The position numbers and the translations under genes were made by a program. The notes beneath the pieces are model-generated. The model was not told the DNA's origin and did no database searches. It worked only from the letters and a program-made list of their open reading frames with translations. Below are positions 25,091 to 62,958 of a DNA stretch of 64,000 nt, in pieces. Origin of the DNA: a virus; IMG/VR virus record IMGVR_UViG_3300037762_000038, positions 257 to 64,256 of that record. One strand, 5' to 3'. Position 1 is the first letter of the stretch; every line of letters starts with the position of its first letter.

Positions 25091-26583
25091 TATGATCTCC
25101 TCGTGTAGATACCCGCGCGGCTGTTAAGCTGTTGCAGCCACGCTTTGCGTTCGGACTCCCGCTCGGGCTCGTTCGTACCCTTGAAATAGTACATGTCCCC
25201 GTACTGCCCGGCCTCGCAAATGTGCGAGTAGATGTTCTTGTTGACCTCAGTGCTTGTAATCCCGGCCTTACTGATCTTATAATGATACCCCCCTTTCATG
25301 CCCCGGATCAAGTACGCGCACTGCGGGCTGATCAGGTAGCCGGCCCCCATCTCCGTGCGCCGGACTAGGAAGAAATCGGTCGCGTTGGTGCGGTGGACCG
25401 GGGTGTTGGAGTAGGCGAACTTCACGGTCCTGAACCCCTCCGACTTGAAGATGTCCACGCACGATCTCTCGTCAGTCTGAGCGCCGGTATTCCCCGCCGG
25501 GTCCCCTGTGACCCGGATGTTGTACCCGCCGTACTTGTTCCGCAGCAGCGGCTTCAGGCGCTCGCGAATCGCGCGCTGGAGCCCCATCCCCTCGGTCACC
25601 ACCTCGTCCAGCGTGAGCACGCGACCGTGCATGTCCTGCTGCTTCAGCGCGAACGCAGGCGTGTGCCCGAAGTCCGCCGCAATCGTCAGGAGCAGGTGCT
25701 TGTTCGGGATCAGCCGATCCTTAGCCACATGGAAGTCAGGATCGAATAGCGGGTGCACGGGCTTGCCGGCCTTGCTCTGGCCGTAAAGGCCCATGATGTA
25801 GACTTTAACATACTCGTCCGACTTGTCCTTCGCGAGGTTACCGTAGTAACCCGGGATCAGGTTCTTGATGTTGTCCGCGTCCTTATTGGTGCGCAGGACC
25901 CAGCCGTTCTTCATCACCACCTCGGCGATCTCGCCGGGCTGACAGCGCACCATGCCTCCGGGCTGCCTGAAAATCTCCCAACCGTTTTTCTTCTGGCGAG
26001 TCGGTTCATCCGGGTCGAGACCTTCCATCATCGCCCATAGATACGAGCCCTCCTCGGGCGGGTTGGTGTCGGCCCACATGCCAAACCACGTCGGCCCCCC
26101 GTCGTCCATCTTCGGGTACTGACCGATACGACCGTCCAGACCTTCCAGAATCTCCCGAGCGGTCTCGCGCGACTCGTTAATGTAGGCACCGGTCAAATCG
26201 AGCGACAGCAGGTTCTTCACGTCGGCCGCGTCGTCCAGCGCTCGGAACATCACCTCGGCGCGCACGTCGGCGAATTCGAGGAAGAACGTCTTGCCGGTCT
26301 CCTTGTACCAGCCGGCACCGCCGCCGTCGGGGAACCAGTCGAACCACGTCTTCATCGTGGTGTCCCTCAACTGTGGCATTGTGTTACGCACGATGGCCCA
26401 GCGCGTACGCCGGTAACCTGATTTGTCGCGCTTCTGTTGCATGGCTCGCTTAACCACGTCCGTCATACAGGTAACCGATTTTCCCGAGCGGAACGGGCCG
26501 TGTAGTAGACGGAATCGCGCGTCGCTCTGCATGAATGCAGAGCACACGGGCGAGCCAGAGAGATCGAGGCGGGTGATGGTCAT
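25090..26583 (-). CDS. terL: terminase large subunit
   Basis: Walker A motif LLHGPFRSGKS near the N-terminus. C-terminal RNaseH-like nuclease motif (TIAADFGHTP). 497 aa. Followed by the portal. Confidence 0.9.
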   Translation of the reverse strand: MTITRLDLSGSPVCSAFMQSDARFRLLHGPFRSGKSVTCMTDVVKRAMQQKRDKSGYRRTRWAIVRNTMPQLRDTTMKTWFDWFPDGGGAGWYKETGKTFFLEFADVRAEVMFRALDDAADVKNLLSLDLTGAYINESRETAREILEGLDGRIGQYPKMDDGGPTWFGMWADTNPPEEGSYLWAMMEGLDPDEPTRQKKNGWEIFRQPGGMVRCQPGEIAEVVMKNGWVLRTNKDADNIKNLIPGYYGNLAKDKSDEYVKVYIMGLYGQSKAGKPVHPLFDPDFHVAKDRLIPNKHLLLTIAADFGHTPAFALKQQDMHGRVLTLDEVVTEGMGLQRAIRERLKPLLRNKYGGYNIRVTGDPAGNTGAQTDERSCVDIFKSEGFRTVKFAYSNTPVHRTNATDFFLVRRTEMGAGYLISPQCAYLIRGMKGGYHYKISKAGITSTEVNKNIYSHICEAGQYGDMYYFKGTNEPERESERKAWLQQLNSRAGIYTRRS

Positions 26584-28973
26584 GCGAGTGGCTCCGGATC
26601 AGCGAGCGGGTCGAGGTCGGGGTGGAAGAAGACGTAGTTGTTGATCACCGGGATTTCTGATGACGCGAATGTTTGAGTCACGAAGTCGTCGCCATACAGC
26701 AAGTTAATGATTGAGTCGTCCCCCACGGTATTCTCTACCACAGTGTGATATTGCCCGTACAAGGCCCTCAACGCGTCCCGAATTGGATTCCACAGATTGG
26801 CGAAAGCCCCAGCGTCGTTCGCTCCCAGCGCCGCGATCAAGCCGGGGCGTGCGGCATCATACTGATCACTGATATCGGACAGTTGCGCGATAAGTTGCTC
26901 GCGCAACGACCGGCGAGGCTGCCAGTTGGTACCCGACAAGTTCACCAGTTGGGTGTACTTGACCTGCCACGCCGTCGTAAAGATGACTGGCTCGCCAACG
27001 AACAGACTTGAGGGCAACGCTGCGCCAGCCTGAAGCGCTGAGAACAGGTTGGAAGCGGGCGGGGCGTTCCTATTCCGCGGCCCATGAATGGACGCAGTGA
27101 GGTTGAAGCTAAGTGCGGATGCCGCGTGGATCAGAATGAAGCCCTCCTCACCTTCTATGGCCGTTAACAAGCTAACGACATACCATAGGGGGGCGTCCTC
27201 GAAGTTCGACGACGGTGGAAGGTCCGCAAACAGCAAGTCCGTGCCCCAAGGTGCTTGCGAACCAGTGATCTGAGCAAACACGGGAGAGGGCACCCGGAAC
27301 AATCGCTTGAATGCCTGACGGTGTACTTCCGTGATGGTGAACCCACCACCGGGGTCTCTACTATCCGAGCTAGGGCCGTGCAATTCCCACGTCGGCGTGT
27401 TATTCAAAAGGGTCCTCTGCCCCCCGTCTCCGACCGAGAAACTGGGAAAGGACGCATAACCACCCGAGAAGCTGCCCGTGAAAGGAGCACCCGTAATTTC
27501 CACACGATGTTTTTCAATGCCGTCCACGTACGCAACGTCCGTGAAGGCCCCCGAACTGCGGTCGAAGCGTAGCACTGTAATTCGTCCGCGCATTGTTTCG
27601 AATATCTTAACGGGATCACTGTCCGTAGGACCGCCGAAGCCGGTCTCCACCTGAGTCATCAGGGTACCGATCTGTGGGTGGTCTAGGGTCCTCGTTGTCT
27701 CGCCGGACTCGTCAGGAAACTGGAATACTACGGCAGCATCCTGCTTCGCAGTGATCGCCACTCGCCCCGTCAGGTTCAACCAGTCGGCGGACACCGCCCC
27801 GTATGTAAGAGAGCTAAAGTTGCTGGGGTTGAACGCCTGATTGAACTGATCGAACGTGCGGTCCTCATGTGTCTGGACGGGGAAGGTCTCGGCGATCCGT
27901 AGCGTGTTCTCGTCCTGCACCGTCAATCGAGCGCACCACGTCGCATCCTCGATGCCACTCCACGAAAAAGAGCCGAACGTCGGAATCACTGGAACAGCGG
28001 CCGTAGTAGTGACCTTCACTCCATACAGCACAGGGCCGTTTGGCAGCGCGTACACGCCGCACGCCTCCTCTTTAAAAATGGCGTTATTGGCATCAACAAA
28101 CTCTTGGCGCGAAACGCCGCCCATCCATTGTAGGATATTCCCCGAGCCATCGTTTATGGCGATTGCTCCTACCCCCAACTCCGCGAAGCCCGCATTGCCC
28201 ACTACGAATGGACGCATATCCATGAGCTTCCCGCGGACTGATCCATCGAGAAAGCCGGGGCTGAGACTTGGAACAAGCCTGCGCACACCCACTACGAATG
28301 GGGCGATTCCAGCGTGAAGCACTACATAACCGTCTTCGAATTGAGATTCGCCCCAAAATGGGTTGGCTCCAGACAACGAGATTGGAGGGCGAACCCACAG
28401 CGCATAAAGTTCGCCGTCATCTCCGATCACCACTGAGCTTGCCGCTGACATGCTCGGAACCGCGGTCAGGTCGGGAGGCGTGTTCGATACATAGCTTGCC
28501 AGAGACACCGGCACCTCGAACGACTCACTAAATCCCATGCTTAGTGTGTGCACCACGAGCAGAGCCTCCGTGTGATGTCCACGTTCCACAAGGAATCGCA
28601 CCAAGTTCAAACGCTCGGTCATATTCTCGGGGAACATAGAGTCGTCATCCGTGTGAGTGAACACCATGTCAGGAATCTCGCCGGACGGGGCCGCGCTAAT
28701 GCCTAGCACCCCATGAGGAACAGAGACATTCACCGGGCCTAGAAACGATTGTAGGACCGCGCGCCCCAGTCCAAGGATGCCAGTGACAGCGCTGGTGATC
28801 CTGATTCGGTCGCGAAACCCGCCCCACCAGATCGTGATCTCTCGACCGCGCGGTAGATGGAATCGGCGCACGCCGAACGGGAACAGCTTCCTGAACCGCT
28901 CAAGCTGACGCTTGGCGAACGGCAGCAGCCACGCGGCAGAAGCCCCATCGATGTCGATCTTAGGTAGTCTCAT
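26580..28973 (-). CDS. large hypothetical protein (about 797 aa) translationally coupled upstream of terL
   Basis: Long ORF. Start is taken at the internal Met that overlaps the stop of the upstream ORF. Its own stop overlaps the terL start. No recognisable motif. Confidence 0.55.
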   Translation of the reverse strand: MRLPKIDIDGASAAWLLPFAKRQLERFRKLFPFGVRRFHLPRGREITIWWGGFRDRIRITSAVTGILGLGRAVLQSFLGPVNVSVPHGVLGISAAPSGEIPDMVFTHTDDDSMFPENMTERLNLVRFLVERGHHTEALLVVHTLSMGFSESFEVPVSLASYVSNTPPDLTAVPSMSAASSVVIGDDGELYALWVRPPISLSGANPFWGESQFEDGYVVLHAGIAPFVVGVRRLVPSLSPGFLDGSVRGKLMDMRPFVVGNAGFAELGVGAIAINDGSGNILQWMGGVSRQEFVDANNAIFKEEACGVYALPNGPVLYGVKVTTTAAVPVIPTFGSFSWSGIEDATWCARLTVQDENTLRIAETFPVQTHEDRTFDQFNQAFNPSNFSSLTYGAVSADWLNLTGRVAITAKQDAAVVFQFPDESGETTRTLDHPQIGTLMTQVETGFGGPTDSDPVKIFETMRGRITVLRFDRSSGAFTDVAYVDGIEKHRVEITGAPFTGSFSGGYASFPSFSVGDGGQRTLLNNTPTWELHGPSSDSRDPGGGFTITEVHRQAFKRLFRVPSPVFAQITGSQAPWGTDLLFADLPPSSNFEDAPLWYVVSLLTAIEGEEGFILIHAASALSFNLTASIHGPRNRNAPPASNLFSALQAGAALPSSLFVGEPVIFTTAWQVKYTQLVNLSGTNWQPRRSLREQLIAQLSDISDQYDAARPGLIAALGANDAGAFANLWNPIRDALRALYGQYHTVVENTVGDDSIINLLYGDDFVTQTFASSEIPVINNYVFFHPDLDPLADPEPLA

Positions 28974-29419
28974 TGCTTGGTCTTCGTGCTCGGTGCGTTC
29001 GCGAGCTTGTCCATCGCCTCGGCAGGGTCCTCTCCTACGACTGTGTTCTCGGCCGTTAACTCCGGCTGCGGCTCGGGCTCCAGCTTTGCGCGGGCGGCTT
29101 CCGCGAGCGCATTCTGCTGCTCGATTAGCTCCGCGAGGATGTCCACCGGCTTCTCGAACACGCGCACTGAGGTAAGTTCTGCCTCGATCCACGCAGAGTA
29201 TCGAAAGTGCTGAAGCAACGCGGAGATCGCCGCGCCAGCGCGCTTCGCCACCTCGGCCCGGTGGTCTGAGGTCTCGCAGTTCACGAGGTGATTAAGGCAC
29301 GTCGCAGCGAGCCCGGTCATGCGAGTGATCTCGCCGGCCAGTAGCTCCTTCACCCCCAGCAGCGCGAGCACCTCCTCCTCGGTGTAGTTCGATCTCACAC
29401 GCACTCCACCGCGCGCCAC
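28970..29419 (-). CDS. hypothetical protein (149 aa)
   Basis: ORF in the packaging-module leader region. Confidence 0.45.
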   Translation of the reverse strand: MARGGVRVRSNYTEEEVLALLGVKELLAGEITRMTGLAATCLNHLVNCETSDHRAEVAKRAGAAISALLQHFRYSAWIEAELTSVRVFEKPVDILAELIEQQNALAEAARAKLEPEPQPELTAENTVVGEDPAEAMDKLANAPSTKTKQ

Positions 29420-38994: not shown

Positions 38995-39263
38995 GGTTCA
39001 CCACCTCCAGCATCACGACTCGCGGCACGCCGCGTAAGGTCTCGGGGCCGCTGTTCCAGATGCTCGTTGAGAACTTCAACCGCAATGGGTGCAGCGGCCC
39101 ACACTCCCCGCTGGGGGTGACGCTGGCCCCGCTGCTGAACTACCTCGTCAAGCACAGCATCCCCTTCCGCCTGATCTACGACCCGGAACTGCACTCTTAC
39201 GTGGTGTACAAAGGGACAGGGTATTTAAACGACACGAAGGGGGTCGCTACTCGGAGCGCTTGA
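38991..39263 (+). CDS. hypothetical protein (90 aa)
   Basis: ATGA overlap with the upstream gene. Confidence 0.45.
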   Translation: MRFTTSSITTRGTPRKVSGPLFQMLVENFNRNGCSGPHSPLGVTLAPLLNYLVKHSIPFRLIYDPELHSYVVYKGTGYLNDTKGVATRSA

Positions 39264-39289
39264 CAGCCCCACAGGCTTAGCATTACACT
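39260..39289 (+). promoter_or_regulatory. sigma70-like promoter GCTTGACA ... CTTAGCATTACACT
   Basis: Consensus -35. The -10 is either TAGCAT (short spacer) or TACACT (18-nt spacer). Upstream of the small basic protein gene. Confidence 0.45.
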
Positions 39290-39629: not shown

Positions 39630-40103
39630 ATGACCCGAGCCATCAAAGCCTTTCTCGCTGCTGCCCTGATCTTCGGCGCGTGGTCTTACGCGCGCCCAGC
39701 ACAGGCAGCGGGCTTGTGCCCTGACTGGTGGGGCACGATGCCACTCACCTCGTACCACTTCGACCGCAGGCGCAGCAACGGCGAGCGGTGGAACGAGGCG
39801 AACCTCGGCATCGGTATCGAATGCAAGGCAGCGAAGGGCTTGCGCTTGGGCGGCGGCTACTACCCGAACAGCAAGAAGGAGGACACGTTCTTTCTCGGCG
39901 TGATCGCCACACCGTGGGAGTGGAAGCGATGGGAGTGGGGCGGGTCCTTCATGCTGGGTACCGGCTACAGCGAGAAGGTGCTGTTCTCCGGCCTGCCGAC
40001 CGGCGCTGCCGTGCGGGAGTTCGACGGGGAATGGAAGGGCTGGGGTGTCACTGTCCTGATCGCCACGAGTGCAGTGGCTCTCAAGCTGAACCGAGATTTC
40101 TGA
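39630..40103 (+). CDS. secreted small beta-barrel outer-membrane-like protein (157 aa)
   Basis: N-terminal signal peptide (cleavage near AQA-AG). Alternating amphipathic beta-strand pattern. C-terminal aromatic residue (…KLNRDF), as in OMP beta-barrels (Lom/Ail/PagL-like class). Confidence 0.5.
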   Translation: MTRAIKAFLAAALIFGAWSYARPAQAAGLCPDWWGTMPLTSYHFDRRRSNGERWNEANLGIGIECKAAKGLRLGGGYYPNSKKEDTFFLGVIATPWEWKRWEWGGSFMLGTGYSEKVLFSGLPTGAAVREFDGEWKGWGVTVLIATSAVALKLNRDF

Positions 40104-40288
40104 TGGGCCGAGGTACGGGCCAGCACAAGGCGGTGCTTAACGTGCGGCTTCCCGTGGAGGAGCGCGATGCGTTGCTCGCTCTCGCTGCGGCCCGAGGGCA
40201 GTCGCCCTCCGAGTTCGTGAGGCAGGCTTTAAACGCAGTGCTGGGTGCGCTGCGCTCTCAATCAACCGACAAGAAGGAGGCACCATGA
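40103..40288 (+). CDS. ribbon-helix-helix (CopG/Arc-like) DNA-binding regulator (61 aa)
   Basis: VLNVRLPVEERDALLALAAARGQSPSEFVRQAL matches the RHH beta-strand plus two-helix signature. Confidence 0.6.
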   Translation: MGRGTGQHKAVLNVRLPVEERDALLALAAARGQSPSEFVRQALNAVLGALRSQSTDKKEAP

Positions 40289-40911
40289 CCTATCACCGCA
40301 AGCCCATCCGGGGACTCCCGAAGGGAAGATTCTTCGGGCCCCTCGTTGATGCGGCGAAGCTGAACGGCTTCGACCTGAACCTGCCCCTCGAAACCATCGA
40401 CGGGGACGAGGTAATCGTGCTCACCGTGGACGAGGGACATCCATACCCCATCGTGGGCGAGGTGCATGACTACAACGCGAACGTCGGCTGGCTCGCCCGC
40501 TGGCGCGAGACGGGGAGCTATCGCGGCACGCTCGCGGCAGCGATGAAGCACTCGCTGTATTACAACACTGAGGGGCCCATCGCGCGCGCTTACATCAAGG
40601 AGCGGGCCCCGCGTATGATCCAGTTCGGCGGTGCGCGCCCCGCCGGCAAATCGTGGCTCTCCACTGCCATTCGAGCGGCAGCGGAACGCGTGAAACTGAA
40701 GAACGACCTGAGCAAGGTGTACTCGGCGGCGCTCGCCGACCACTCAGCGCAACATGTGGCGGCGGTCGCCTTCCACATTAACCGGCTGCTCGACGAGGGG
40801 CGGGTGAGCTTTTCTCAAGGGCTCGTGGATTTCGAGACGCTCGCGTACGTGGTTCGGCTCGCAAACGATCCCACCGTTAAGATCGGCATCCGTGGGGACT
40901 TCATCAAGTGA
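40285..40911 (+). CDS. hypothetical protein (208 aa)
   Basis: ORF coupled to the upstream gene, with an AAGGAGG RBS. Confidence 0.55.
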   Translation: MTYHRKPIRGLPKGRFFGPLVDAAKLNGFDLNLPLETIDGDEVIVLTVDEGHPYPIVGEVHDYNANVGWLARWRETGSYRGTLAAAMKHSLYYNTEGPIARAYIKERAPRMIQFGGARPAGKSWLSTAIRAAAERVKLKNDLSKVYSAALADHSAQHVAAVAFHINRLLDEGRVSFSQGLVDFETLAYVVRLANDPTVKIGIRGDFIK

Positions 40912-41387
40912 ACGCCAAGCTCGCAAAGATGCTTCGCGGCCCCGCCCAGTACCGCAACCAGTCGGCCACACCCGGGGTCACGCCGTTCCCGGGGATCATG
41001 CGCATGTACCGCCACCCGGTGTACAGCACGCGCATCACGACGAAGACTTCGTTCATCCGCCTGCCGATGGAGGACAAGGTGACGAAGGTGTTTACACGTG
41101 TTCGTCACATGGTCGTGGATCGCTGGGGCAAGCCCATCGTGGAGATGGTGACACACTCCCCCGGCACCCTGCCGGTGGCCTTTGGCGACGACGGCAAGCC
41201 GACCGAGTTCAACAAGCACGTAGTGGTACAGCCGAAGGAGCAGGTGGTGCCGGTGACGAAGCCGGTGCGGCTCGACCCGACGTGCGCGAAGGCGAAGTAC
41301 CGGGCGCTCAAGCGCCTTGGCCGGAAGGGGCTGCTGATTCAGACCGGCGCAGCCATCATCGACTCACTCAAGGAGGTGCCAGCATGA
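40908..41387 (+). CDS. hypothetical protein (159 aa)
   Basis: ATGA-coupled ORF. Confidence 0.55.
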   Translation: MNAKLAKMLRGPAQYRNQSATPGVTPFPGIMRMYRHPVYSTRITTKTSFIRLPMEDKVTKVFTRVRHMVVDRWGKPIVEMVTHSPGTLPVAFGDDGKPTEFNKHVVVQPKEQVVPVTKPVRLDPTCAKAKYRALKRLGRKGLLIQTGAAIIDSLKEVPA

Positions 41388-42199
41388 AATCATTCCTCAA
41401 GGGTCTGCGCAATGTGATCATCTTCATCGTGCTCCTGATCGGCCTGATGTACGCGGTCGCGCAAAGCGGACGGTACGATTACACTGCGCCGCGCTCGACT
41501 GTGCACGCGATCTACGGTGATGCCGAGGTGAAGTCGAGCCAAGGCTCCGGTGTGATGATCGCCCCCCGTCTGATGCTCACGGTGACACACGGCATGCTCG
41601 ACCAGCCCGTCTTCGTGGGCGATCTGCGCGTGCCGGCCAAGGTGCTCAGGACCGACAAGGAGAAAGACCTCGCACTCCTTCTCGTGGCAATGGATTGCCC
41701 CTGCGCCCGTATCGCACTGGCTGCTCCCGAGATCGATGACCGCGTGCTCGCCATCGGCTACCCGATGAATTCGATCACGCGGATGCAAGTGCTCAGCGAA
41801 GGGCGATACCAAGGGGTCAGACCGGATTCCTTGGTCGCTGCCATTTCGGCTCCGCTCGCGTCTGGTAACTCAGGCGGCGGCGTATTCGCATGGGATGGGG
41901 TGAGGTGGGCCCTGATCGGGATTGCCAGCGGCGTGACGGTGGTTCGGCTTCCTCCCTATGGGGACATGAGCATGCTCCCTCACTTGGGCTCCGCCGTGAG
42001 CACCGCGGCCGTACGGACATTCCTGAACGTGGGCCCCTCTCTACTCGAACTGAACAATCTTACGCCGGAGAAGATCGTGAACACCACGCCTGCTGCGACG
42101 GTCGAGGATGGTGAATCCGCATCATGGGCCGGCCTCGCTCGGGACCTCGCCGAGATTCAGCGGCTGATCGAGGAACACGCCCAGCGTAAGGGGTACTGA
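41384..42199 (+). CDS. membrane-anchored trypsin-like (S1) serine protease (271 aa)
   Basis: N-terminal TM helix (IIFIVLLIGLMYAV). Catalytic triad candidates: TVTHGM (His), DLALLLV (Asp), GNSGGGVF (Ser, GDSGG-like). Confidence 0.7.
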   Translation: MKSFLKGLRNVIIFIVLLIGLMYAVAQSGRYDYTAPRSTVHAIYGDAEVKSSQGSGVMIAPRLMLTVTHGMLDQPVFVGDLRVPAKVLRTDKEKDLALLLVAMDCPCARIALAAPEIDDRVLAIGYPMNSITRMQVLSEGRYQGVRPDSLVAAISAPLASGNSGGGVFAWDGVRWALIGIASGVTVVRLPPYGDMSMLPHLGSAVSTAAVRTFLNVGPSLLELNNLTPEKIVNTTPAATVEDGESASWAGLARDLAEIQRLIEEHAQRKGY

Positions 42200-42585
42200 T
42201 GCTCGCTGAGGCCGCACTGTGCATGGCGCTGACGGTGTACCACGAGGCCGGGGGCGAGCCCTACGTGGGGCGGGAGGCCGTCGCGCATGTGCTTCACAAC
42301 CGCGCTAAGAAGTACGGCACGAGCATCTGCTGGGAGGCGTTCAGATACAAGCAATTCTCGTGGACGCTGTACCCGTCCAAGCTGGAGCGCCTTCCGAAGG
42401 GGCCCGCATGGGAGGACTCGAAGCGCGTCGCCCAGCGGGTGCTGTCCGACACCTCGGACTTCACGGGCGGGGCTGATCACTTCCATACCGTCGGCCTCAC
42501 GCCGAGGCCGTACTGGGTGACGCCGAAACTGGAAGTAGCGGGCCAGTGGGGGGACCACATCTTCTACCGCCCTCGGCGCAAGTGA
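42199..42585 (+). CDS. SleB/CwlJ-like cell wall hydrolase (Hydrolase_2 family), endolysin candidate (128 aa)
   Basis: Conserved YHEAGGEP...VAHVLHNR...YKQFSW motifs of the SleB-like catalytic domain. Confidence 0.65.
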   Translation: MLAEAALCMALTVYHEAGGEPYVGREAVAHVLHNRAKKYGTSICWEAFRYKQFSWTLYPSKLERLPKGPAWEDSKRVAQRVLSDTSDFTGGADHFHTVGLTPRPYWVTPKLEVAGQWGDHIFYRPRRK

Positions 42586-42821
42586 GGTATACTGCCGCCC
42601 TTGTTCTGCTTCTCGCCGGCTGCGCCACGCTCGATGCGGGGCCCCGGCGGACCGCAGAGAACACGTGTAACTTCCTGTTCCTCGCCGCCGTACCGGTAGC
42701 GGGGGCTGTACTCGCCGCCCTGTGCACGTTCGGCGTCGAGGAGATACCAGAGGAGAACGAAGATGTTTCAGGCAATCGTAGAAGCCCTAGCTCATTGGCG
42801 CGACCGACTCGCCCTCGCTGA
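42582..42821 (+). CDS. small membrane protein with two hydrophobic segments and a lipobox-like LLAGC (79 aa); holin-like, or the N-terminal anchor of the downstream SPFH protein
   Basis: GTG start. TM1 ALVLLLAGC and TM2 FLFLAAVPVAGAVLAALCTF. Overlaps the next gene by 59 nt in another frame. Confidence 0.4.
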   Translation: MRYTAALVLLLAGCATLDAGPRRTAENTCNFLFLAAVPVAGAVLAALCTFGVEEIPEENEDVSGNRRSPSSLARPTRPR

Positions 42822-43314
42822 GATCATCGACGCCTATGAGCACGGCGTCGTTCTCCGCTGGGGGAAATACCATCGCACGCTGGGGCCCGGGTACCACTGG
42901 AAATGGCCTGTAGCCGAACTCGTGGTGCAGGTGATCACGTGCGACCGCACCATGCATCTCCCGGCGCAGCCGCTGACCACCCTCGATGACAAGTCGGTGA
43001 GCGTGGGAGCGGCGGTTAAGTATTCCATCATCAATCCCGAGAAGTTCGTGACGCAGGTGTGGGATCAGCACGACGTGCTCGCTGACGTAACGATGGGAGC
43101 GGTGTGCAAGGTGATTAACAACACCACGTACTCCGCGCTTGTGCATGAGACCCCCGTGGGGGAGATCACGCCCGAGGACAAGGTGCTGGAGCGGGTGCGC
43201 AACAAGGTAACAGCCAAGTACGGCTTCAAGGTGCACGAGATCACCTTCATCGCCTTCGCTCGGTCGCACGCTATCCACCTCGTGCAGCCGCTTCCCAAGG
43301 ACATCGAGAACTAG
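42763..43314 (+). CDS. SPFH / band-7 (stomatin-prohibitin-flotillin-HflK/C) domain protein (183 aa)
   Basis: HGVVLRWGKYHRTLGPGYHWKWPV...VITCDRTMHLPAQPLTTLDDKSVSVGAAVKYSIINPEKFV matches the SPFH domain core pattern. No TM segment in this frame. Confidence 0.7.
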   Translation: MFQAIVEALAHWRDRLALAEIIDAYEHGVVLRWGKYHRTLGPGYHWKWPVAELVVQVITCDRTMHLPAQPLTTLDDKSVSVGAAVKYSIINPEKFVTQVWDQHDVLADVTMGAVCKVINNTTYSALVHETPVGEITPEDKVLERVRNKVTAKYGFKVHEITFIAFARSHAIHLVQPLPKDIEN

Positions 43315-43315
43315 C

Positions 43316-43489
43316 ATGAGCCGAGATTGGTTCAAAGGCATGTGCAAATTTATGGTTAGCGACAGCGCTAGTCATATCGTCGGTAAGCGCCCATGCTCGC
43401 GTAAGCCGGTGAAGGATGACCTGTGTGCTTTCCATCAGCCCGAGAAGGTCAAGGCGCGCTACGACAAACTTCTTGCGAGACATCGCTGA
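43316..43489 (+). CDS. hypothetical small protein (57 aa)
   Basis: ATGA-coupled to the DNA polymerase start. Weak support. Confidence 0.3.
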   Translation: MSRDWFKGMCKFMVSDSASHIVGKRPCSRKPVKDDLCAFHQPEKVKARYDKLLARHR

Positions 43490-45501
43490 TGCAACTGATG
43501 ATCCTCGACTACGAGACGTACTACGGCGACGACTACACGTTGAGCAATCTGTCCACGTCGGCCTACGTCATGGACCCGAGGTTCGAGGTGATCGGAGTTG
43601 GCATCCGCTACGGCGACCGCCGTGCATGGCTGGAGGAGTACCAGTGGCGCGCATTCGCGCGGAGCGTGGACTGGTCGCAGATCACGATGCTATGCCACCA
43701 TGCCCACTTCGACGGGCTGATCGGCTCCTACCACTACGGAGTGCGCCCCGGGTACTGGCTCGACACGCTGAGCATGGCGCGAGCGCTGCATGGCGTCACC
43801 GTGGGCGGGAGCCTCGGCAAGGTGTCGGCGCACTACGAGGTGGGCGTGAAGGGGACCGAGGTAGTGCAGGCGAAGGGCAAGCGCCGCGCCGACTTCACGC
43901 AGGAGGAGTGGCTACGCTACGGGGGATACTGTTTAAATGACTGCGACCTGACACTCGGCATCCTCCAGAAGATGCTGCCGACGTTCCCGCGCCCCGAGCT
44001 AGACCTGATTGACACGACCGTGCGGATGTTCACCGAGCCGGTCCTCGTGCTGGATCAGGAGAAGATGGCCCAGTATTACGCCGACGAGATCAAGCGCAAG
44101 GAGACGCTGCTGCTGGAGTGCGGCGCGGACAAGAAGGTGCTGGGCTCCGGCGACAAGTTCGCCGACCTGCTCCGCCAGTTCAACGTCGAGCCGCCGACCA
44201 AGCTGAGCCCGAAGCAAAAGAATGAGGACGGCTCGCCCAAGCGGGTGTATGCCTTCGCTAAGACGGACCCCGGGATGCAGGAGCTACTGGAGTACGAAGA
44301 CGATGACGTGCGCCTGCTCGCCGAGGCCCGGATCAGCATCAAGTCCACGTTGAACGAGAGCCGCAGCGCCCGCATCCTGAACCTCGGGGCGAACGGCCGG
44401 CCGATGCCGGTGTACCTGAATTACTCCGGGGCCTTCCAGACCAAGCGATGGAGCGGGGGCGACAAGGTTAACTGGCAGAACTTCGAGAAGACGAACAAAA
44501 GGAATCCGAAGAAAGGGATGATCCGCAAGTCCATCCGCGCGCCCAAGGGATACAAGGTGGTGAAGGCCGACGCCTCGCAGGTCGAAGCTCGCTTCAACGC
44601 GTGGGAGAGTGGGCAGGATGACCTCGTGGCGTTGTTCGCCAGCGGGGTAGACGTGTACTCCAGCTTCGCCACCGATGCCTACGGCCGCAAGATCGACCGG
44701 AAGAACGTGGCCGAAGACGAGTTGCCCGGACAGGTCGCTAAGATTTGCATCCTCGGTCTCGGCTACCGCATGGGTTACCTCAAGCTGGCCGGCGAATTGC
44801 TGATGGGCCGAGGCGGTGCGCCGAAGGTGCAGTTTAAACGCGAGGACATGGAGCGCCTGAGCATTGACCCGGCCCCCTTCCTTTCGAACCCGCGCATCGT
44901 GCGTGAGATCAAGGAGATGCCCAGCCGCCTGCCCGAGGCCGACCGTATGATCCACTGCACCGTGACGAACTACTTCGTGCAGACCTATCGCCGGAAGATG
45001 GATAAGATCGCCGGCAACTGGAAATACTGGGACGAGGTGATCAAGTGGATGGCCTCGGGCCAGTACGTGGGGGCCAAGGTGGGCAATCGGGGGCTGCTGA
45101 CCATCGTTGAAGACGGGCTCCTCATGCCGCACGGGCTGGTGCTCCGCTACCCGCACCTCGAACACAGCAAGGAGAACGGCTTCAGCTTCCTCGCCGATAA
45201 GGGCCAGCGCAAGAAGATTCACGGCGGCTTCATGGTAGAGAACTATACACAGGCCCTGACCCGTGTTATAGTGGCGGACGCTATGCGCGCTCTGACATGG
45301 GGACGCCAGCGTGCAGGGCTTGAACCTTACAAGATCGCACAGATGGAACACGACGCGCTGACGTGCGTTGTCGAGGAAGCAAGGGCAGGCGAGTGCCTGA
45401 CCGATCTGATGCGAGCGATTAGCACGCCCCCCGCATGGGCACAGGGACTACCACTAGCAGCCGAGGGCGGGATCGGCGACACGATGGGGGACGCGAAATG
45501 A
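43489..45501 (+). CDS. family A DNA polymerase with 3'-5' exonuclease domain (670 aa)
   Basis: Exo I motif MILDYETYY. Pol motif A KADASQVEARFNAW (compare T7 ADASGLELR). Motif B ICILGLGYRMGY. Motif C EHDAL. Confidence 0.85.
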   Translation: MQLMILDYETYYGDDYTLSNLSTSAYVMDPRFEVIGVGIRYGDRRAWLEEYQWRAFARSVDWSQITMLCHHAHFDGLIGSYHYGVRPGYWLDTLSMARALHGVTVGGSLGKVSAHYEVGVKGTEVVQAKGKRRADFTQEEWLRYGGYCLNDCDLTLGILQKMLPTFPRPELDLIDTTVRMFTEPVLVLDQEKMAQYYADEIKRKETLLLECGADKKVLGSGDKFADLLRQFNVEPPTKLSPKQKNEDGSPKRVYAFAKTDPGMQELLEYEDDDVRLLAEARISIKSTLNESRSARILNLGANGRPMPVYLNYSGAFQTKRWSGGDKVNWQNFEKTNKRNPKKGMIRKSIRAPKGYKVVKADASQVEARFNAWESGQDDLVALFASGVDVYSSFATDAYGRKIDRKNVAEDELPGQVAKICILGLGYRMGYLKLAGELLMGRGGAPKVQFKREDMERLSIDPAPFLSNPRIVREIKEMPSRLPEADRMIHCTVTNYFVQTYRRKMDKIAGNWKYWDEVIKWMASGQYVGAKVGNRGLLTIVEDGLLMPHGLVLRYPHLEHSKENGFSFLADKGQRKKIHGGFMVENYTQALTRVIVADAMRALTWGRQRAGLEPYKIAQMEHDALTCVVEEARAGECLTDLMRAISTPPAWAQGLPLAAEGGIGDTMGDAK

Positions 45502-45674: not shown

Positions 45675-45997
45675 CCGACCAGAAAGCACCGGAGCAGGAC
45701 AACCAACCGAAGGTGAACCGCGAGGAGCAGAACCGGGTAATCATACCGATGATGCACCGACTGCTGCCACCCATCGTGCAGGCGGCGGCGCTGTACCATC
45801 AACTCTACCCGCTCGACAAGACCGCGCCGGAAGTAGTGGATGCGGTCACGGTGGCAGTGCCCTTGCGGCACTTCATGTTGATGACCAGCCTCGTGACGAA
45901 CCTCTGCGTCATGGAGATGGAGCGCCGGCAAGCGGCGAACGACGCCAAGGTCAGCGACACGTTCCCGCAAGACCACATTCCCGAGGGGGCAGCATGA
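45671..45997 (+). CDS. hypothetical protein (108 aa) ending in …DHIPEGAA
   Basis: ORF. Its C-terminus and the downstream junction are repeated at 50262-50295. Confidence 0.5.
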   Translation: MTDQKAPEQDNQPKVNREEQNRVIIPMMHRLLPPIVQAAALYHQLYPLDKTAPEVVDAVTVAVPLRHFMLMTSLVTNLCVMEMERRQAANDAKVSDTFPQDHIPEGAA

Positions 45998-46449
45998 AGA
46001 CCGTCTACCTAGCAGGGCCCATCACGGGGCTGGACTACGAGGGAGCCACGGACTGGCGCTACGCCGCTACGCGTCTGCTCGCGCCGGAGATCAAGGCTCT
46101 CTCGCCGATGCGCGGCAAGGAATACCTGTCGCACGTCAAAGAGTTCACGATGGACGGCGACAGGTACAGTCCGTTCAGTGTGATGTCCTCGAACCGGGGC
46201 ATTATGACCCGCGACCGCTGGGACGCTACTCGCTGCGACGTGCTCCTCGTTAACCTTCTCGGCGCGAAGCGCGTCTCCATCGGCACCGTCATGGAGATCG
46301 CGTGGGCCGACGCAGTGCGTACGCCCATCGTGTGCATCATGGAGCCCGAGGGCAACCCGCACGAGCACGGCATGATACTGGAAGCCATCGGCTTTCGTGT
46401 ACCCGGCCTCGAAGAAGCTCTGCACATCATCAAGGCGATGCTGCTATGA
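45994..46449 (+). CDS. nucleoside 2-deoxyribosyltransferase / dNMP N-hydrolase (Rcl/DNPH1)-like protein, paralog 1 (151 aa)
   Basis: N-terminal MKTVYLAGPITG matches the YLAGPF signature of the NDT fold. A conserved Glu follows later. Confidence 0.65.
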   Translation: MKTVYLAGPITGLDYEGATDWRYAATRLLAPEIKALSPMRGKEYLSHVKEFTMDGDRYSPFSVMSSNRGIMTRDRWDATRCDVLLVNLLGAKRVSIGTVMEIAWADAVRTPIVCIMEPEGNPHEHGMILEAIGFRVPGLEEALHIIKAMLL

Positions 46450-46901
46450 GGACCGTCTACCTTGCCGGCCCCATCACCGGCCGCACCATCGGGGAAGCCA
46501 ACGACTGGCGAACGCCAGTGATCGCCGAGCTTGCGAACTTCCGGATCAGGGGCATCTCGCCCCTGCGCTGCGAGCCGCCGCGTGGCGACCGGTACACCAT
46601 CGCCAACGCTGACCCGCAGTTCGGCACCGCGCGCGCCATCGGCAGCAAGAACATGATGGACGTGCGCATGTGCGACCTGACCCTCGCTTATCTGCCCAAG
46701 GCCATGAGCGCACCGTGGCCCAGCCTCGGCACCATCTCCGAGCTTGCTTGGGCGAAGGCGTTCAACAAGCCCACAATCCTCGTGTCTGACGACGCTCGTA
46801 TTTGCGAACATCCCGTGATCGACTCGAACTCTGGATGGATTCTGGATACACTGGATCAGGCAATCGAAGTAATCGTCGGCATCTTCAAGGACTACCCGTA
46901 A
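46446..46901 (+). CDS. nucleoside 2-deoxyribosyltransferase / dNMP N-hydrolase-like protein, paralog 2 (151 aa)
   Basis: N-terminal MRTVYLAGPITG. Tandem paralog of the preceding gene, with an ATGA-overlapped start. Confidence 0.65.
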   Translation: MRTVYLAGPITGRTIGEANDWRTPVIAELANFRIRGISPLRCEPPRGDRYTIANADPQFGTARAIGSKNMMDVRMCDLTLAYLPKAMSAPWPSLGTISELAWAKAFNKPTILVSDDARICEHPVIDSNSGWILDTLDQAIEVIVGIFKDYP

Positions 46902-46911
46902 AGGAGGACCC

Positions 46912-47172
46912 ATGCCCTACATCAAACAGATCGACAGAGACGCGCTGGGGTGCGGCACACGCCATCCCAGCACCGCCGGGGAGTTGAATTACACCTTCAC
47001 CCTGTTCGCGCTGGAGTACATTCAGCGCAAGGGGTTGAGCTACCAGCACATCAACGACGTGCTCGGCGCGCTCGATGGTGCGAAGCTGGAGTTCTATCGC
47101 CGGCTCGCTGCGCCCTACGAGGACAAGAAGATCGCCGAGAACGGCGACGTGTACGATCAGGAGGTCGCATGA
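46912..47172 (+). CDS. hypothetical protein (86 aa)
   Basis: GGAGGA RBS. Confidence 0.5.
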   Translation: MPYIKQIDRDALGCGTRHPSTAGELNYTFTLFALEYIQRKGLSYQHINDVLGALDGAKLEFYRRLAAPYEDKKIAENGDVYDQEVA

Positions 47173-48164
47173 AGCTGATCGGATTGGCGGGCCCCGCCGG
47201 AGTGGGCAAGGACACCATCGCGGACTACCTCGTCGCGACGCATAACTTCACGAAGTTCTCGTTCAGCGACGCGCTGTACGACGAGGTGGCAGCGGCGTTC
47301 GGCATCGACAAAGCCGTGCTCTATGTGCGCGAGACGAAAGAGCACCCGATGGAAGCGTTGCAATACTGGTACTGCAACGACCTCGCTTTTCAAGACATCA
47401 TGTTCGAACAACTGGCGCGCGTCCACAAGTACCCGCTGGACGTGTGGTGTTCGCCGCGTCAGGTGCTCCAGTGGTGGGGCACCGAGTACCGCCGCAAGCA
47501 GAACCCGGGGTATTGGATTTTTAAGGCTGGGCTCGTCGTGCGCGCCTACCTCGCGCTCGCGAAGGATGACCCCGAGACCCAGCGCGGCGGGCTGGTCAAC
47601 TGCTCCGTACGCTTCCCGAACGAGCGCGTCTTCGTCGAGATGCACAACGGCGAGGTGTGGCATGTGCAGCGCCCGAACTGGGGTGACGCTCTGCCGGCGT
47701 CGCAACGGGCCCATGTCGCCGAGCAGGGACTACCGGTGTTGCCGCGCGACAAGGTGGTGCTCAACAACGGCACCATCGAACAGCTTGGCACCGCTGCCAA
47801 CCTGCTCCTCAGCAGCCAGCCGGGTAGCATGATCAAGTGCGCCCCAGTCGGTCCCGAGCAGGTAACCTGTACGGGGTGCGGCTGGGTCCACATGGCCTAC
47901 ACGCGCGCCGAAGCGCAGCGCGAGGTGGACGACTTCAACGCATGGTTCGTCCAACAGACCGACGAGACGAAGGCCAGCTATGGCGGCAAGCAGTCACGCG
48001 TCGAGGATTACGAGGGCTGCGACCGCTGTGGCCGCAAGGTGTTCCGCCCGAGCAAGCCTGATGACGCGCCAATCGGTTGCACCATCGGGCCGGTGATCTA
48101 CGACCCAGCGGCCGAGGAGGCCGACCGCCGCTTCGGGCAACCGCATTACGGGCACGACGCATGA
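47169..48164 (+). CDS. deoxynucleoside monophosphate kinase (T4 gp1-like) with C-terminal Cys-rich zinc region (331 aa)
   Basis: N-terminus MKLIGLAGPAGVGKDTIADYL closely matches the T4 dNMP kinase P-loop (MKLIFLSGVKRSGKDTTADFI). C-terminus has CTGCG...CDRCG. Confidence 0.8.
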   Translation: MKLIGLAGPAGVGKDTIADYLVATHNFTKFSFSDALYDEVAAAFGIDKAVLYVRETKEHPMEALQYWYCNDLAFQDIMFEQLARVHKYPLDVWCSPRQVLQWWGTEYRRKQNPGYWIFKAGLVVRAYLALAKDDPETQRGGLVNCSVRFPNERVFVEMHNGEVWHVQRPNWGDALPASQRAHVAEQGLPVLPRDKVVLNNGTIEQLGTAANLLLSSQPGSMIKCAPVGPEQVTCTGCGWVHMAYTRAEAQREVDDFNAWFVQQTDETKASYGGKQSRVEDYEGCDRCGRKVFRPSKPDDAPIGCTIGPVIYDPAAEEADRRFGQPHYGHDA

Positions 48165-54297: not shown

Positions 54298-54489
54298 GTG
54301 AATGGGGGAACCATGATCAAGCTATTCGCACTGCTGGGCGTCTTCATTCTGGTGTTCGGGGTTCACGCCATAACCATGATCCACGGCTGGGGTGTGACCC
54401 CGGAAAGCTGGACGGTCATCGGGTTCGGCTGGTTCGCGTCCGTCGTCCTCACCATGCTCACGACCGTCATCTCGCAGGACAAATCGTGA
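54298..54489 (+). CDS. small two-TM membrane protein (63 aa)
   Basis: Own promoter TTGACA-N17-TAAGAT at 54254-54282. Two hydrophobic helices. Confidence 0.45.
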   Translation: MNGGTMIKLFALLGVFILVFGVHAITMIHGWGVTPESWTVIGFGWFASVVLTMLTTVISQDKS

Positions 54490-61116: not shown

Positions 61117-61219
61117 GCTGTGCTTTGGTGTGACGGTCAGCAAGTGGACCAAGCCTGCGGGATGTGACCCCGCCATTCGTGGGTTCGAATCCCACCCGTC
61201 ACCCCAAAGCACAGCGGCT
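61117..61219 (+). other. 20-bp extended helix (one mismatch) formed by the leader and trailer around tRNA-His
   Basis: 5' GCTGTGCTTTGGTGTGACGG pairs with 3' CCGTCACCCCAAAGCACAGC. The tRNA acceptor stem is the inner 7 bp. Confidence 0.5.
61130..61206 (+). tRNA. tRNA-His (anticodon GTG), tentative
   Basis: Acceptor GTGACGG/CCGTCAC with discriminator C. T-loop GTGGGTTCGAATCCCAC. Anticodon loop ATGTGAC. CCA encoded. Flanked by a further 12-bp extension of the acceptor helix. Confidence 0.55.
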
Positions 61220-61241
61220 TAACAGAACAGGAGACCGAGAC

Positions 61242-61298
61242 ATGAGCAAAGCAGGAAAACGACCGCGACCCAAGCCATACACCCGCATCAGGGGGTAG
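61242..61298 (+). CDS. candidate micro-ORF encoding an 18-aa Pro/Arg-rich peptide (MSKAGKRPRPKPYTRIRG)
   Basis: Preceded by the conserved leader TTAACAGAACAGGAGACC, which is shared with two highly expressed early genes. Overlaps the tRNA-Pro 5' end by 10 nt, which lowers confidence. Confidence 0.25.
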   Translation: MSKAGKRPRPKPYTRIRG

Positions 61299-61366
61299 GC
61301 TAGTCTGGTCAAGTCACCCGGCTTGGAACCGGGAGATCGCTGGTTCGAATCCAGCCCTCCTGACCA
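61289..61366 (+). tRNA. tRNA-Pro (anticodon TGG)
   Basis: Acceptor CAGGGGG/CCTCCTG. Anticodon stem CCCGG/CCGGG with loop CTTGGAA. T-arm GCTGGTTCGAATCCAGC. CCA encoded. Confidence 0.65.
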
Positions 61367-61491
61367 TTTCGTAGGCGCACCAGTCACACCGTGAGCAGCG
61401 GGCCGGCCCTACGGGCCACTCGTTGGTGATCTGGTTCTCCGACCGCGCAGGTGTACCTTATATGGGCCCTGCGGTGGTGCGCCTTCGAAAT

Positions 61492-61567
61492 GGGGTTGTA
61501 GCTCAGATGGGAGAGCGCCGCACTTGCAATGCGGATGTCGCGGGTTCGATCCCCGCCTTCTCCACCA
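61492..61567 (+). tRNA. tRNA-Ala (anticodon TGC)
   Basis: D-arm GCTCAGATGGGAGAGC. Anticodon stem CCGCA/TGCGG with loop CTTGCAA. G3:U70 in the acceptor. T-arm GCGGGTTCGATCCCCGC. Two U-U mismatches in the acceptor stem. Confidence 0.6.
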
Positions 61568-61574
61568 GAACATT

Positions 61575-61650
61575 GCGCCCGTAACTCAGCGGACAGAGTG
61601 CGTGGCTACGAACCACGGAGCCGGAGGTTCGATTCCTTCCGGGCGCGCCA
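61575..61650 (+). tRNA. tRNA-Arg (anticodon ACG)
   Basis: Acceptor GCGCCCG/CGGGCGC. Anticodon stem CGTGG/CCACG with loop CTACGAA. T-loop GGTTCGATTCC. Confidence 0.7.
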
Positions 61651-61656
61651 GACAGA

Positions 61657-61721
61657 AGCGGGGTAGTTCAGCGGCCGAACACCGGTCTCATAAGCCGGCG
61701 CACGTGGGTTCGATTCCCACT
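61657..61721 (+). tRNA. tRNA-Met (anticodon CAT)
   Basis: D-arm GTTCAGCGGCCGAAC. Anticodon stem CCGGT/GCCGG with loop CTCATAA. T-arm GTGGGTTCGATTCCCAC. 1:72 is an A-A mismatch. Confidence 0.6.
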
Positions 61722-61739
61722 CCCGCAACCAAGGACACT

Positions 61740-62081: not shown

Positions 62082-62203
62082 TGATCGCGGAGTTCGACTC
62101 TCCCTACCCGCTCCAATACGCATGGGCCTCTCTCCCGCTGACACGGGCGGGGATGTCAGTCTCGCCGACGGCCACCAGTGCCCCGGTTGAGGCCCAGCCG
62201 TAT

Positions 62204-62279: not shown

Positions 62280-62284
62280 GACTT

Positions 62285-62636: not shown

Positions 62637-62640
62637 GATT

Positions 62641-62714: not shown

Positions 62715-62722
62715 GATTCATG

Positions 62723-62950: not shown

Positions 62951-62958
62951 GTTTAAAC

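Follow-up and report, generated by a model that had tools for sequence, protein, structure and literature searches.

A phage gene block encoding an S1 protease, a SleB-type hydrolase, a small lipoprotein and a compact SPFH protein as a probable extended lysis cassette

Introduction

Two cellular systems are among the closest to the gene block described in this study: HflK/HflC–FtsH of Escherichia coli, in which SPFH (band-7) proteins form a cage around a membrane protease, and the stomatin–NfeD or STOPP pairs (PH1511/PH1510 of Pyrococcus, QmcA–YbbJ of E. coli), two-gene operons in which the partner of an SPFH protein is a membrane-anchored serine protease or a small membrane protein. The block itself belongs to a metagenomic virus and encodes, in this order, an S1 serine protease, a SleB-type peptidoglycan hydrolase, a small lipoprotein and a short SPFH protein (genes 1 to 4; positions 41384–43314, + strand). 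It lies in a stretch of 64,000 nucleotides, hereafter the window (positions 257 to 64,256 of IMG/VR record IMGVR_UViG_3300037762_000038), which is nearly the entire 64,256-bp viral contig (JGI sample 3300037705). An earlier reading of the bare sequence (the sequence-only reading) had offered three functions for the block: a regulated lysis-timing device, a superinfection-exclusion module or a membrane-remodelling system. The analysis presented here favours the first, a lysis-linked device, since in relatives the SPFH, lipoprotein and protease genes travel with holin, spanin and interchangeable endolysin genes.

The likeness to the cellular systems is partial. Gene 4 contains SPFH1 and SPFH2 and best matches HflK, and its gene is linked to a protease gene as in HflK/HflC–FtsH. 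However, the protein has 183 residues rather than ~420 and is devoid of the transmembrane helix, coiled-coil wall and cap; its partner is an ATP-independent, presumably periplasmic S1 enzyme whereas FtsH is an AAA+ metalloprotease, and the membrane is predicted to separate the two proteins of the block. The structural matches of gene 4 also include Pyrococcus horikoshii stomatin and QmcA–YbbJ. The NfeD protease is ClpP/S49-like and carries an OB-fold, whereas the protease here has a chymotrypsin fold like that of DegS, and the small partner is a lipoprotein. None of the four proteins matched an NfeD or ClpP family in Pfam or NCBIfam, and an NfeD-type partnership was rejected because no such domain was found.

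SPFH genes have been noted in T4-like, Vi01-like, N4-like, Kayvirus, Lessievirus and Rhizobium phages, where the papers call their role unclear; no phage SPFH protein with a tested function was found in the searchable literature. A phage lysis region containing an SPFH gene was found to be hinted at in only one published case, MbpS of the Kayviruses (the Staphylococcus phage K group), whose gene lies between the endolysin gene lysK and the lytic enzyme gene tgl, next to a holin-like gene (PMC7150955). MbpS differs from gene 4 in being a full-length, membrane-anchored stomatin-like protein (SPFH residues 57–244) of a Gram-positive system that has neither a lipoprotein nor a protease partner (PMC7150955).

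Three further systems bear comparison. The lambda SRRzRz1 cassette has a signal-less endolysin followed by small envelope proteins, a lipoprotein among them, all translationally coupled; the lipoprotein of the present block is not an o-spanin, however, no holin or i-spanin gene adjoins the block in the window, and the SPFH protein and protease have no counterpart in lambda. In T4 lysis inhibition (holin T, host DegP and two antiholins, RI of the periplasm and RIII of the cytoplasm), the time of lysis is set by accessory proteins on either side of the inner membrane, and the periplasmic S1C protease DegP degrades RI, the periplasmic partner (Tran et al. 2007, as cited in PMC8385771). The two sets are unrelated in sequence, the T4 protease is host-encoded with a doubtful role in timing, and the resemblance is put forward as an analogy. 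DegS, finally, is the best structural match of gene 1 (3LGI) and shares its N-terminal membrane anchor and GNSGG serine motif; gene 1 differs in that it lacks a PDZ domain and has, in addition, a C-terminal helix and a CPC motif that does not vary. No equivalent of the protease–hydrolase–lipoprotein–SPFH cassette was found in the searchable literature, which agrees with the sequence-only remark that it is unlike standard phage lysis cassettes. We regard the block as a genuine and conserved variant of the phage lysis cassette that had not been described before, with moderately good support for its assignment to lysis.

Materials and methods

The surroundings of ~45 SPFH genes from four collections were read, and labels such as L001 and L012 denote these loci of relatives; soil and groundwater are among the sources of the samples behind L032–L047. 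The loci were annotated with local phmmer seeds, Pfam and PHROGs. The Pfam gathering cutoffs are 27.6 bits for Trypsin_2, 27 bits for Hydrolase_2 and 23.6 bits for Band_7.

A coupled four-gene block in the early operon

The protease gene (41384–42199), the hydrolase gene (42199–42585), the lipoprotein gene (42582–42821) and the SPFH gene (42763–43314) follow one another on the + strand. From the entry of the block to its exit, the successive junctions are ATGA, TGATG, GTGA, a 59-nucleotide overlap and TAGCATG. The sequence-only description of four contiguous, translationally coupled genes is thus borne out by the coordinates, the common strand and the overlapping junctions. No promoter-like or terminator-like site was found within the block; the nearest promoter-like site is at 39260–39289.

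In the window, structural and packaging genes (terminase, portal-like adaptor, major head protein, SU10-type adaptor) occupy the - strand from ~600 to 30500, and early/replication genes (family-A polymerase, primase-helicase, SNF2 helicase, nucleotide enzymes) the + strand from ~31700 to 61000. The block belongs to the latter operon, with the family-A DNA polymerase gene directly downstream. The sequence-only reading had remarked on this early position, which holds; it is not odd in itself, as T7 gene 3.5 provides a precedent for an endolysin inside a replication-type operon. The G+C content of the cassette equals that of the window (0.626), which together with the absence of internal promoter-like or terminator-like signals makes it unlike a recently acquired moron. 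A recent foreign insertion was rejected on the same identity of G+C content.

The order protease–Hydrolase_2–lipoprotein–SPFH is kept in L001, L010 and L011 at 49–67% protein identity, so that the synteny check proposed in the sequence-only reading came out positive. The Pfam searches it had proposed did likewise: Trypsin_2, Hydrolase_2 and Band_7 are each matched above their gathering cutoffs. A nucleotide search with 41000–44000 against 50,697 phage records returned zero matches, and the polymerase of the window is only ~31% identical to those of the nearest cultured phages.

Recurrence of the accessory genes beside lysis genes

At least ten differing gene arrangements place the SPFH gene beside lysis genes, and across differing neighbourhoods it lies within ~2.5 kb of holin, spanin and endolysin genes. 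Five unrelated endolysin families alternate around it, and the association persists through this replacement. An endolysin or holin gene is found within 2.5 kb in ~12 of the 18 context types; the chance expectation for a random gene in a 50-kb genome is ~10%, by rough estimate. DUF5675 was counted as a lysin in this survey on the basis of its reported C82-like lysin identity (bioRxiv 10.64898/2026.04.11.717860).

In the window and in L001, L010 and L011 the order is S1 protease, Hydrolase_2, lipoprotein, SPFH and polymerase, and L035 and L037 have the Hydrolase_2–lipoprotein–SPFH part of it. The S1 protease is also present in L026 (S1 protease, GH24 lysozyme, SPFH, lipoprotein), in L027 (S1 protease, GTA-type holin, GH24, SPFH, lipoprotein, integrase), and in L029 and L043, where SPFH is followed by the S1 protease and a holin, with an M15_3 peptidase between them in L043. 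Holin, endolysin and Rz/Rz1 genes accompany SPFH in L012–15 (DUF5675, holin of phrog_1356, Rz of phrog_1026 with overlapped Rz1, a membrane protein, lipoprotein, SPFH, integrase and Hydrolase_2) and in L050 (holin of phrog_785, GH24, Rz/Rz1, DUF2829, SPFH). Shorter arrangements are GH24–holin–SPFH in L028 and M15_3 peptidase–holin-like–SPFH in L042.

A further group is built around an acidic protein. GTA_holin_3TM, the acidic protein, SPFH and DUF5675 follow one another in L004–6, and the last three of these in L020/21 and L053; in L017–19, L025 and L038 the order is GTA_holin_3TM, acidic protein, lipoprotein, SPFH, two small genes and, on the other strand, GH108. Proteases of other classes stand beside SPFH at two loci. 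In L052, small membrane proteins, a secreted aspartic protease (PF13650) and a 48-residue membrane protein precede the SPFH gene, and in L051 the gene of a papain-type protease (PF00112) overlaps the SPFH start, with Rz/Rz1 1.1 kb away. Most of the proteases beside SPFH are nevertheless S1 enzymes, and those with the CPC motif adjoin it in the clade of the window, L026, L027, L029 and L043.

No lysis genes are visible at the remaining loci: in L030/L045 and L031 the SPFH gene is beside terminase genes, in L048 it is with small membrane proteins, and in L049 its neighbours look bacterial. L007 and L008 carry a distant mini-SPFH relative (25–29% identical) in a Mu-like head module (L007 2649–3191, L008 2499–3041), flanked by a portal gene and a protease/scaffold gene, a setting that misfits a lysis role.

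The mini-SPFH protein and its family

The 183-residue product of gene 4 (42763–43314, +) matches Pfam Band_7 (PF01145) with 65 bits (1e-17) over residues 21–160, and NCBIfam HflK (TIGR01933) with 63.5 bits (1.9e-17), under the cutoff of 159.4. Its structural model (predicted local distance difference test score, pLDDT, 78.6) gave Foldseek matches to HflK, stomatin, QmcA, prohibitin and flotillin with E values of 7e-9 to 1e-4, and the SPFH/band-7 assignment of the sequence-only reading stands. An amphipathic N-terminal helix (residues 2–16) is followed by SPFH1 and SPFH2, and the chain ends ~20 residues past SPFH2. Unlike canonical cage-forming SPFH proteins, the model has no transmembrane helix, coiled coil, cap or long helix. 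Among 152 members of the family, the best 18-residue N-terminal stretch has a median Kyte-Doolittle value of 1.3 and 2.6 charged residues.

A word-indexed search recovered 13 SPFH relatives of 176–183 residues, and a profile search of 1.84 billion representatives recovered 266 clusters at E ≤ 1e-30, almost all of 165–190 residues and aligned end to end. In 185,579 species genomes a single mini-SPFH was found, on a phage-like contig of a metagenome-assembled genome and identical to L050. PHROGs covers the family weakly, via phrog_200. The tblastn searches of phage records with three mini-SPFH proteins matched only host HflK/HflC and full-length prohibitins; MbpS is not a member of the family, since these searches gave no such phage match. 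The SPFH proteins of phages RHEph10 and CSP3 have ~285 residues and other contexts. The mini-SPFH proteins are a large, previously unrecognised, metagenome-only family of ~175 residues.

Directly 3' of the SPFH gene is a small Cys-rich gene, coding for 57 residues in the window (43316–43489) and 51 residues in L002 (1810–1965). The SPFH protein of L002 is 100% identical to that of the window and its protease nearly identical, but this small gene differs between the two, a pattern that indicates population-level gene swapping at that spot.

The small lipoprotein

Gene 3 (42582–42821, +) encodes 79 residues. Its likeliest start is the GTG at 42582, which forms the GTGA overlap with the stop of gene 2; another GTG lies at 42546. 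The protein begins MRYTAALVLLLAGC, a lipobox (LLAGC, Cys14), and continues with PRRTAEN, a hydrophobic segment of ~18 residues flanked by two cysteines, CTFG and an acidic tail. Conservation is lacking in the final 19 codons, which overlap gene 4. No other open reading frame of the window makes a convincing lipoprotein.

Homologues adjoin the SPFH gene in other backbones. Open reading frames with a lipobox, of 33–89 residues, lie directly 5' of SPFH in the window, L001, L010, L011, L012–15, L017–19, L025, L032, L033, L035 and L037, and directly 3', overlapping the SPFH stop, in L026 and L027. The adjacency thus persists through inversion of the gene order, and the lipoprotein gene is the tightest partner of the SPFH gene. 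The lipidated cysteine and a C-x-F motif are invariant in the alignment. What sets the long forms apart is the ~18-residue hydrophobic insertion and the acidic tail, and seven of the 11 aligned homologues have 33–41 residues with a single hydrophobic signal segment. Most lipoprotein reading frames had been overlooked by gene callers, a point for annotation that applies in particular to those of 33–41 residues. Of the sequence-only description, a 79-residue protein with two transmembrane segments and LLAGC, the length and lipobox are retained; the protein is better described as a small lipoprotein than as a two-transmembrane protein, the second segment being missing in roughly half of the homologues.

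Several other identities were considered for gene 3 and rejected. It is not an o-spanin (Rz1-like): L012 and L050 each possess an overlapped Rz1 of their own, and no i-spanin gene is adjacent in the window. A u-spanin (T1 gp11-like) was rejected since a linker of only 15 residues follows the lipidated cysteine before the hydrophobic segment begins, and since that segment is missing from the short forms, which likewise speaks against a class II holin. Nor do SPFH and lipoprotein together replace the spanins, as complete spanin pairs stand alongside SPFH in L012, L050 and L051. A programmed frameshift joining the hydrophobic segment of gene 3 to SPFH is contradicted by three arrangements: a separate GGAGG site precedes the SPFH start in L001, the genes merely abut in L017, and their order is inverted in L026 and L027.

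The short lipoproteins (L001 5873–5986, L012 6325–6438, L026 2161–2280 and others) terminate in C-x-F with a free carboxyl terminus, loosely recalling the Y-x-F tails of outer-membrane proteins that activate DegS via its PDZ domain. The motif is internal in the long forms, so the parallel may be empty.

The S1 protease

Gene 1 (41384–42199, +) encodes a 271-residue DegS/HtrA-like S1 serine protease. It matches Pfam Trypsin_2 with 47.4 bits (4e-12) and phrog_9683 ('protease') in PHROGs. The triad His69/Asp95/Ser163, in TVTHGM, DLALLL and GNSGGG, does not vary among ten homologues and is also kept by phage S1 proteases that are more distant. The AlphaFold model (pLDDT 81.5) consists of an N-terminal helix (residues 2–28), a chymotrypsin fold, a disordered linker and a C-terminal helix (residues 248–268); the trypsin-like protease with an N-terminal membrane anchor that the sequence-only reading had recognised is therefore confirmed in domain, helix and triad. 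The closest solved structures found by Foldseek are DegS lacking its PDZ domain (3LGI, E 6e-12), MucD and HtrA; a sequence search of the PDB was empty. Fold and triad are those of the HtrA/DegP/DegS (S1C) proteases, but a PDZ domain is lacking, with no Pfam match and none in the model; the score against NCBIfam DegS is 18 (cutoff 423), and that against DegP is likewise far below its cutoff.

Ten residues past the catalytic aspartate, C105-P-C107 (41696–41704) is invariant. This CPC motif, which may form a periplasmic disulfide or a metal site, is common to every lysis-linked phage S1 protease examined. At E ≤ 1e-3, tblastn with the protease found nothing in the phage records; at E ≤ 5 it found only the trypsin-like peptidase of Rhizobium phage RHph_TM3_3_14B (29% identity), which is without the CPC motif and whose gene lies ~2.5 kb from the lysozyme gene of that phage and is followed by the gene of a protein with four transmembrane segments. 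Distant homologues that keep CPC (33–39% identity) are encoded immediately 5' of endolysin-type genes at two loci. In L055 the protease gene is followed by genes for a GH24 endolysin of the signal-anchor-release type, a two-transmembrane protein and an i-spanin-like protein, and in L057 by that of an M15_4-like peptidase; no SPFH gene is visible on either of these short contigs.

Relatives of gene 1 have an ordinary Sec signal peptide at the N-terminus, or a lipobox in the case of L055, which argues that the protease acts in the periplasm. The sequence-only reading had pointed out that cellular SPFH proteins pair with membrane proteases and had noted that the S1 class is a different one. The difference in class holds, but a direct enclosure of this protease in the manner of HflKC–FtsH is not supported, because the protease is periplasmic and the SPFH protein has no export signal.

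The SleB-type hydrolase

The 128-residue product of gene 2 (42199–42585, +) matches Pfam Hydrolase_2 (PF07486) with 53.1 bits (5e-14) and the endolysin family phrog_938. It aligns over its full length to the SleB catalytic domain (4F55, 4FET) and retains the glutamate of the YxE motif (YHE16, equivalent to YGE). The N-terminus belongs to the fold, and therefore no signal peptide is present, as the sequence-only reading of a signal-less SleB/CwlJ-type hydrolase had it. The protein is a catalytic domain only, without the N-terminal peptidoglycan-binding domain and signal peptide of spore SleB, and scores 25.8 against NCBIfam spore_SleB (cutoff 236.5).

Pfam and PHROG scans of essentially all plausible open reading frames found no second peptidoglycan hydrolase in the window, and the slot of gene 2 is taken by GH24 or M15 endolysins in the sister cassettes L026, L027, L043, L055 and L057. 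Gene 2 is proposed to be the endolysin of the phage, on the strength of this shared slot and of being the sole recognisable hydrolase. For annotation, this would mean that a small Hydrolase_2 gene in an 'early' region can be the endolysin.

Discussion

The block is probably an extended lysis cassette, serving a diderm (Gram-negative-type) host, in which an endolysin gene is joined by an accessory lysis module. The product of gene 2 would be a cytoplasmic, signal-less muramidase or transglycosylase of the SleB type whose release awaits a holin. Genes 1, 3 and 4 would encode accessory lysis factors, which other phages carry beside their holin, endolysin and spanin genes. Judged from their gene neighbourhoods, these accessories probably control the timing or the membrane step of lysis. 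Because the SPFH gene is found alongside both complete spanin pairs and endolysins of every kind, its action is placed at the holin/inner-membrane step; we infer that it is the membrane step, and neither peptidoglycan nor the outer membrane, that the accessories target.

A possible mechanism follows from the predicted locations of the proteins. The protease would be exported by Sec and act in the periplasm, the lipoprotein would be held on the periplasmic side by its lipid anchor, and the mini-SPFH protein would sit on the cytoplasmic face of the inner membrane via its amphipathic N-terminal helix and SPFH1 surface. The SPFH scaffold inside and the lipoprotein outside could then form a two-sided clamp under which the holin, or its surrounding membrane, stays non-lethal, and the dedicated periplasmic protease would strip the outside partner and thereby set the lysis time. 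The closest functional parallel would be T4, whose holin is acted on by RIII from inside and by a DegP-labile RI from outside. This specific clamp is a tentative proposal and, taken by itself, rather unlikely to be correct as drawn. As an alternative within the same frame, the SPFH protein might exit through the holin lesion together with the endolysin and so reach the lipoprotein in the periplasm. One may also speculate, with similar reserve, that an SPFH scaffold, a disulfide-capable mini-lipoprotein and an exported protease constitute an unrecognised class of lysis regulator in tailed phages of diderms, which would either gate holin triggering as a proteolytic lysis clock or perform a fourth membrane step of lysis.

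The cassette and its relatives provide a specific lysis hypothesis for phage SPFH proteins, and a compact set of partners: a holin-dependent endolysin, a protease, a lipoprotein of 23–66 mature residues and a 175-residue SPFH domain. If the hypothesis is true, the three-step model of Gram-negative lysis would gain a new regulatory or executive component, and a first function would be assigned to a phage SPFH protein. Viruses would then have reinvented the SPFH–protease pairing using different protease classes, and the smallest known SPFH system would become available for mechanistic work as a minimal, genetically tractable model of SPFH–protease coupling.

A number of points weigh against the lysis assignment. 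No holin gene adjoins the cassette in the window. The sole candidates lie 11 kb and 42 kb away: a 63-residue protein with two predicted transmembrane segments (54298–54489, +), the only small membrane open reading frame resembling a class II holin on a coding strand of the window, identified by hydrophobicity scan with no Pfam or PHROG match; and a 95-residue protein (324–611, -), encoded at the end of the late operon, which combines an N-terminal transmembrane helix with a coiled coil, has no PHROG match and is no more than a candidate i-spanin or holin. Small Hydrolase_2 proteins are encoded in 961 phage records, T5-like phages among them, and T5-like phages use a different endolysin; in L012, moreover, the Hydrolase_2 gene stands outside the holin–spanin cassette. 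Gene 2 could therefore be an auxiliary hydrolase. Lysis genes are not nearby in L030/L045, L031, L007/8 and L049, and many of the other contexts share related backbones, so that the associations are not all independent. The aspartic and papain-type proteases are single observations, the latter without an obvious signal peptide. At the loci with short lipoproteins, SPFH and lipoprotein are predicted on opposite sides of the membrane, which leaves a direct contact unexplained. The mini-SPFH family is absent from 50,697 GenBank phage records (tblastn, three members as queries), and its proposed function is read from gene neighbourhood. The T4 precedent is itself weak, as degP deletion left T4 lysis inhibition unchanged (PMC8385771).

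The best-surviving alternative, itself unlikely, is that the block is part of an envelope-remodelling or superinfection-exclusion set. From mid-infection, a PagP-like barrel, the protease, the hydrolase, the lipoprotein and the SPFH protein would alter receptors, wall and membranes and keep other phages, or the progeny of the phage itself, from injecting; proximity to lysis genes would then be the usual parking place of morons. Among small phage lipoproteins, T5 Llp and Cor are textbook cases of exclusion factors, and the bor gene of lambda directly follows Rz/Rz1. The operon does contain a PagP-like gene, 1.3 kb upstream of the cassette (39630–40103, +); it encodes a signal-peptide-bearing protein of ~157 residues that resembles a small outer-membrane beta-barrel and weakly matches phrog_3600 (PagP, lipid A acylation), and it is kept in L001 (2936–3445). 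Burkholderia phage CSP3 has PagP near the gene of a full-length SPFH protein, both annotated as morons (PMC10269572), and an integrase gene is close to the SPFH gene in L012, L027 and L048. However, the T7-like lytic backbones of L004, L017, L020 and L025 embed SPFH between holin and endolysin genes with overlapping starts and stops, the cassette has the G+C content of its genome and no promoter-like or terminator-like site of its own, and exclusion leaves the swapping of endolysin families in the hydrolase slot unexplained. PADLOC returned only generic protease-domain matches for gene 1 (RT-Protease, LmuA) and nothing for genes 2–4; a defence system was rejected on this result, and the superinfection-exclusion role offered in the sequence-only reading found no support.

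Less likely still is a role in host takeover or as an anti-defence guard of the membrane, in which the mini-SPFH protein would stabilise the inner membrane against depolarising abortive-infection effectors, or act as a decoy for HflK/C–FtsH or QmcA and shift FtsH proteolysis of phage or host proteins, while protease and lipoprotein would be independent periplasmic effectors. HflK is indeed the best match in both sequence and fold, lambda CII stability is controlled by HflK/C–FtsH (as cited in PMC10269572 and PMC4936722), an oligomeric cage could conceivably be poisoned by an SPFH domain that has no coiled coil, and some contexts are temperate, with an integrase nearby. But the SPFH domain of HflK/C is periplasmic, and the mini-SPFH protein, having no export signal, could not become part of that cage; the backbones are of lytic type in most contexts, and the tight linkage to lipoprotein, endolysins and holins would be left unexplained.

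That the four genes form no functional unit, being unrelated small genes at an operon junction whose neighbours reflect the shared ancestry of a few backbones, is equally improbable: many loci do share backbone genes (PrimPol, split PolA, DUF4406, the acidic protein) and some mini-SPFH genes have quite different neighbours, but the lipoprotein–SPFH adjacency outlasts order inversion and backbone transfer, the same accessories stay in place through five changes of endolysin family, proteases of three catalytic classes stand beside SPFH genes, and endolysin or holin genes are near in far more context types than the rough chance estimate would give.

Other features of the window and of related loci

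Two genes of no family match precede the block on the + strand. The nearer one (40908–41387, 159 residues) is joined to the protease gene by the ATGA overlap, was negative in Pfam, PHROGs, PADLOC and NCBIfam, and keeps its position in L001, L010 and L011; the other (40285–40911, 208 residues) was negative in Pfam and PHROGs and is kept in L001 and L010. Their synteny is confined to the clade of the window, and their membership in the module is uncertain.

Downstream of the block, an overlapping tandem pair of nucleoside 2-deoxyribosyltransferase-like genes (45994–46449 and 46446–46901, +) is followed by DUF6899, a dNMP-kinase-like gene (47169–48164) and DUF1643, which may together form a nucleotide salvage or DNA-modification block. 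In L004, L017 and L020 the holin–SPFH cluster is likewise preceded by DUF4406 or Nuc_deoxyrib_tr genes. L029 encodes a PrimPol-type replicase of 1001 residues (7478–10483, -), against 611–639 residues for the versions of L012 and L027; the extra length appears to be an intein or homing-endonuclease insertion.

On the - strand, a 2639-residue virion protein (3456–11375) matches giant phage proteins in its C-terminal third, including DarB-like antirestriction phrog_10089 and phrog_11358, and contains a DUF7178 segment; no muralytic domain was detected in it. A long open reading frame of up to 870 residues with no family match (26580–29192, -) lies between the terminase gene and small upstream genes, in a stretch where the G+C content drops to 0.59. 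At the far end of the window, 18 tRNA genes for 17 amino acids, two of them tRNA-Leu, occupy 61130–63953 (+), and the array is interrupted by an HNH-endonuclease-like open reading frame (~61740–62081) with tRNA-Met and tRNA-Ile on either side.

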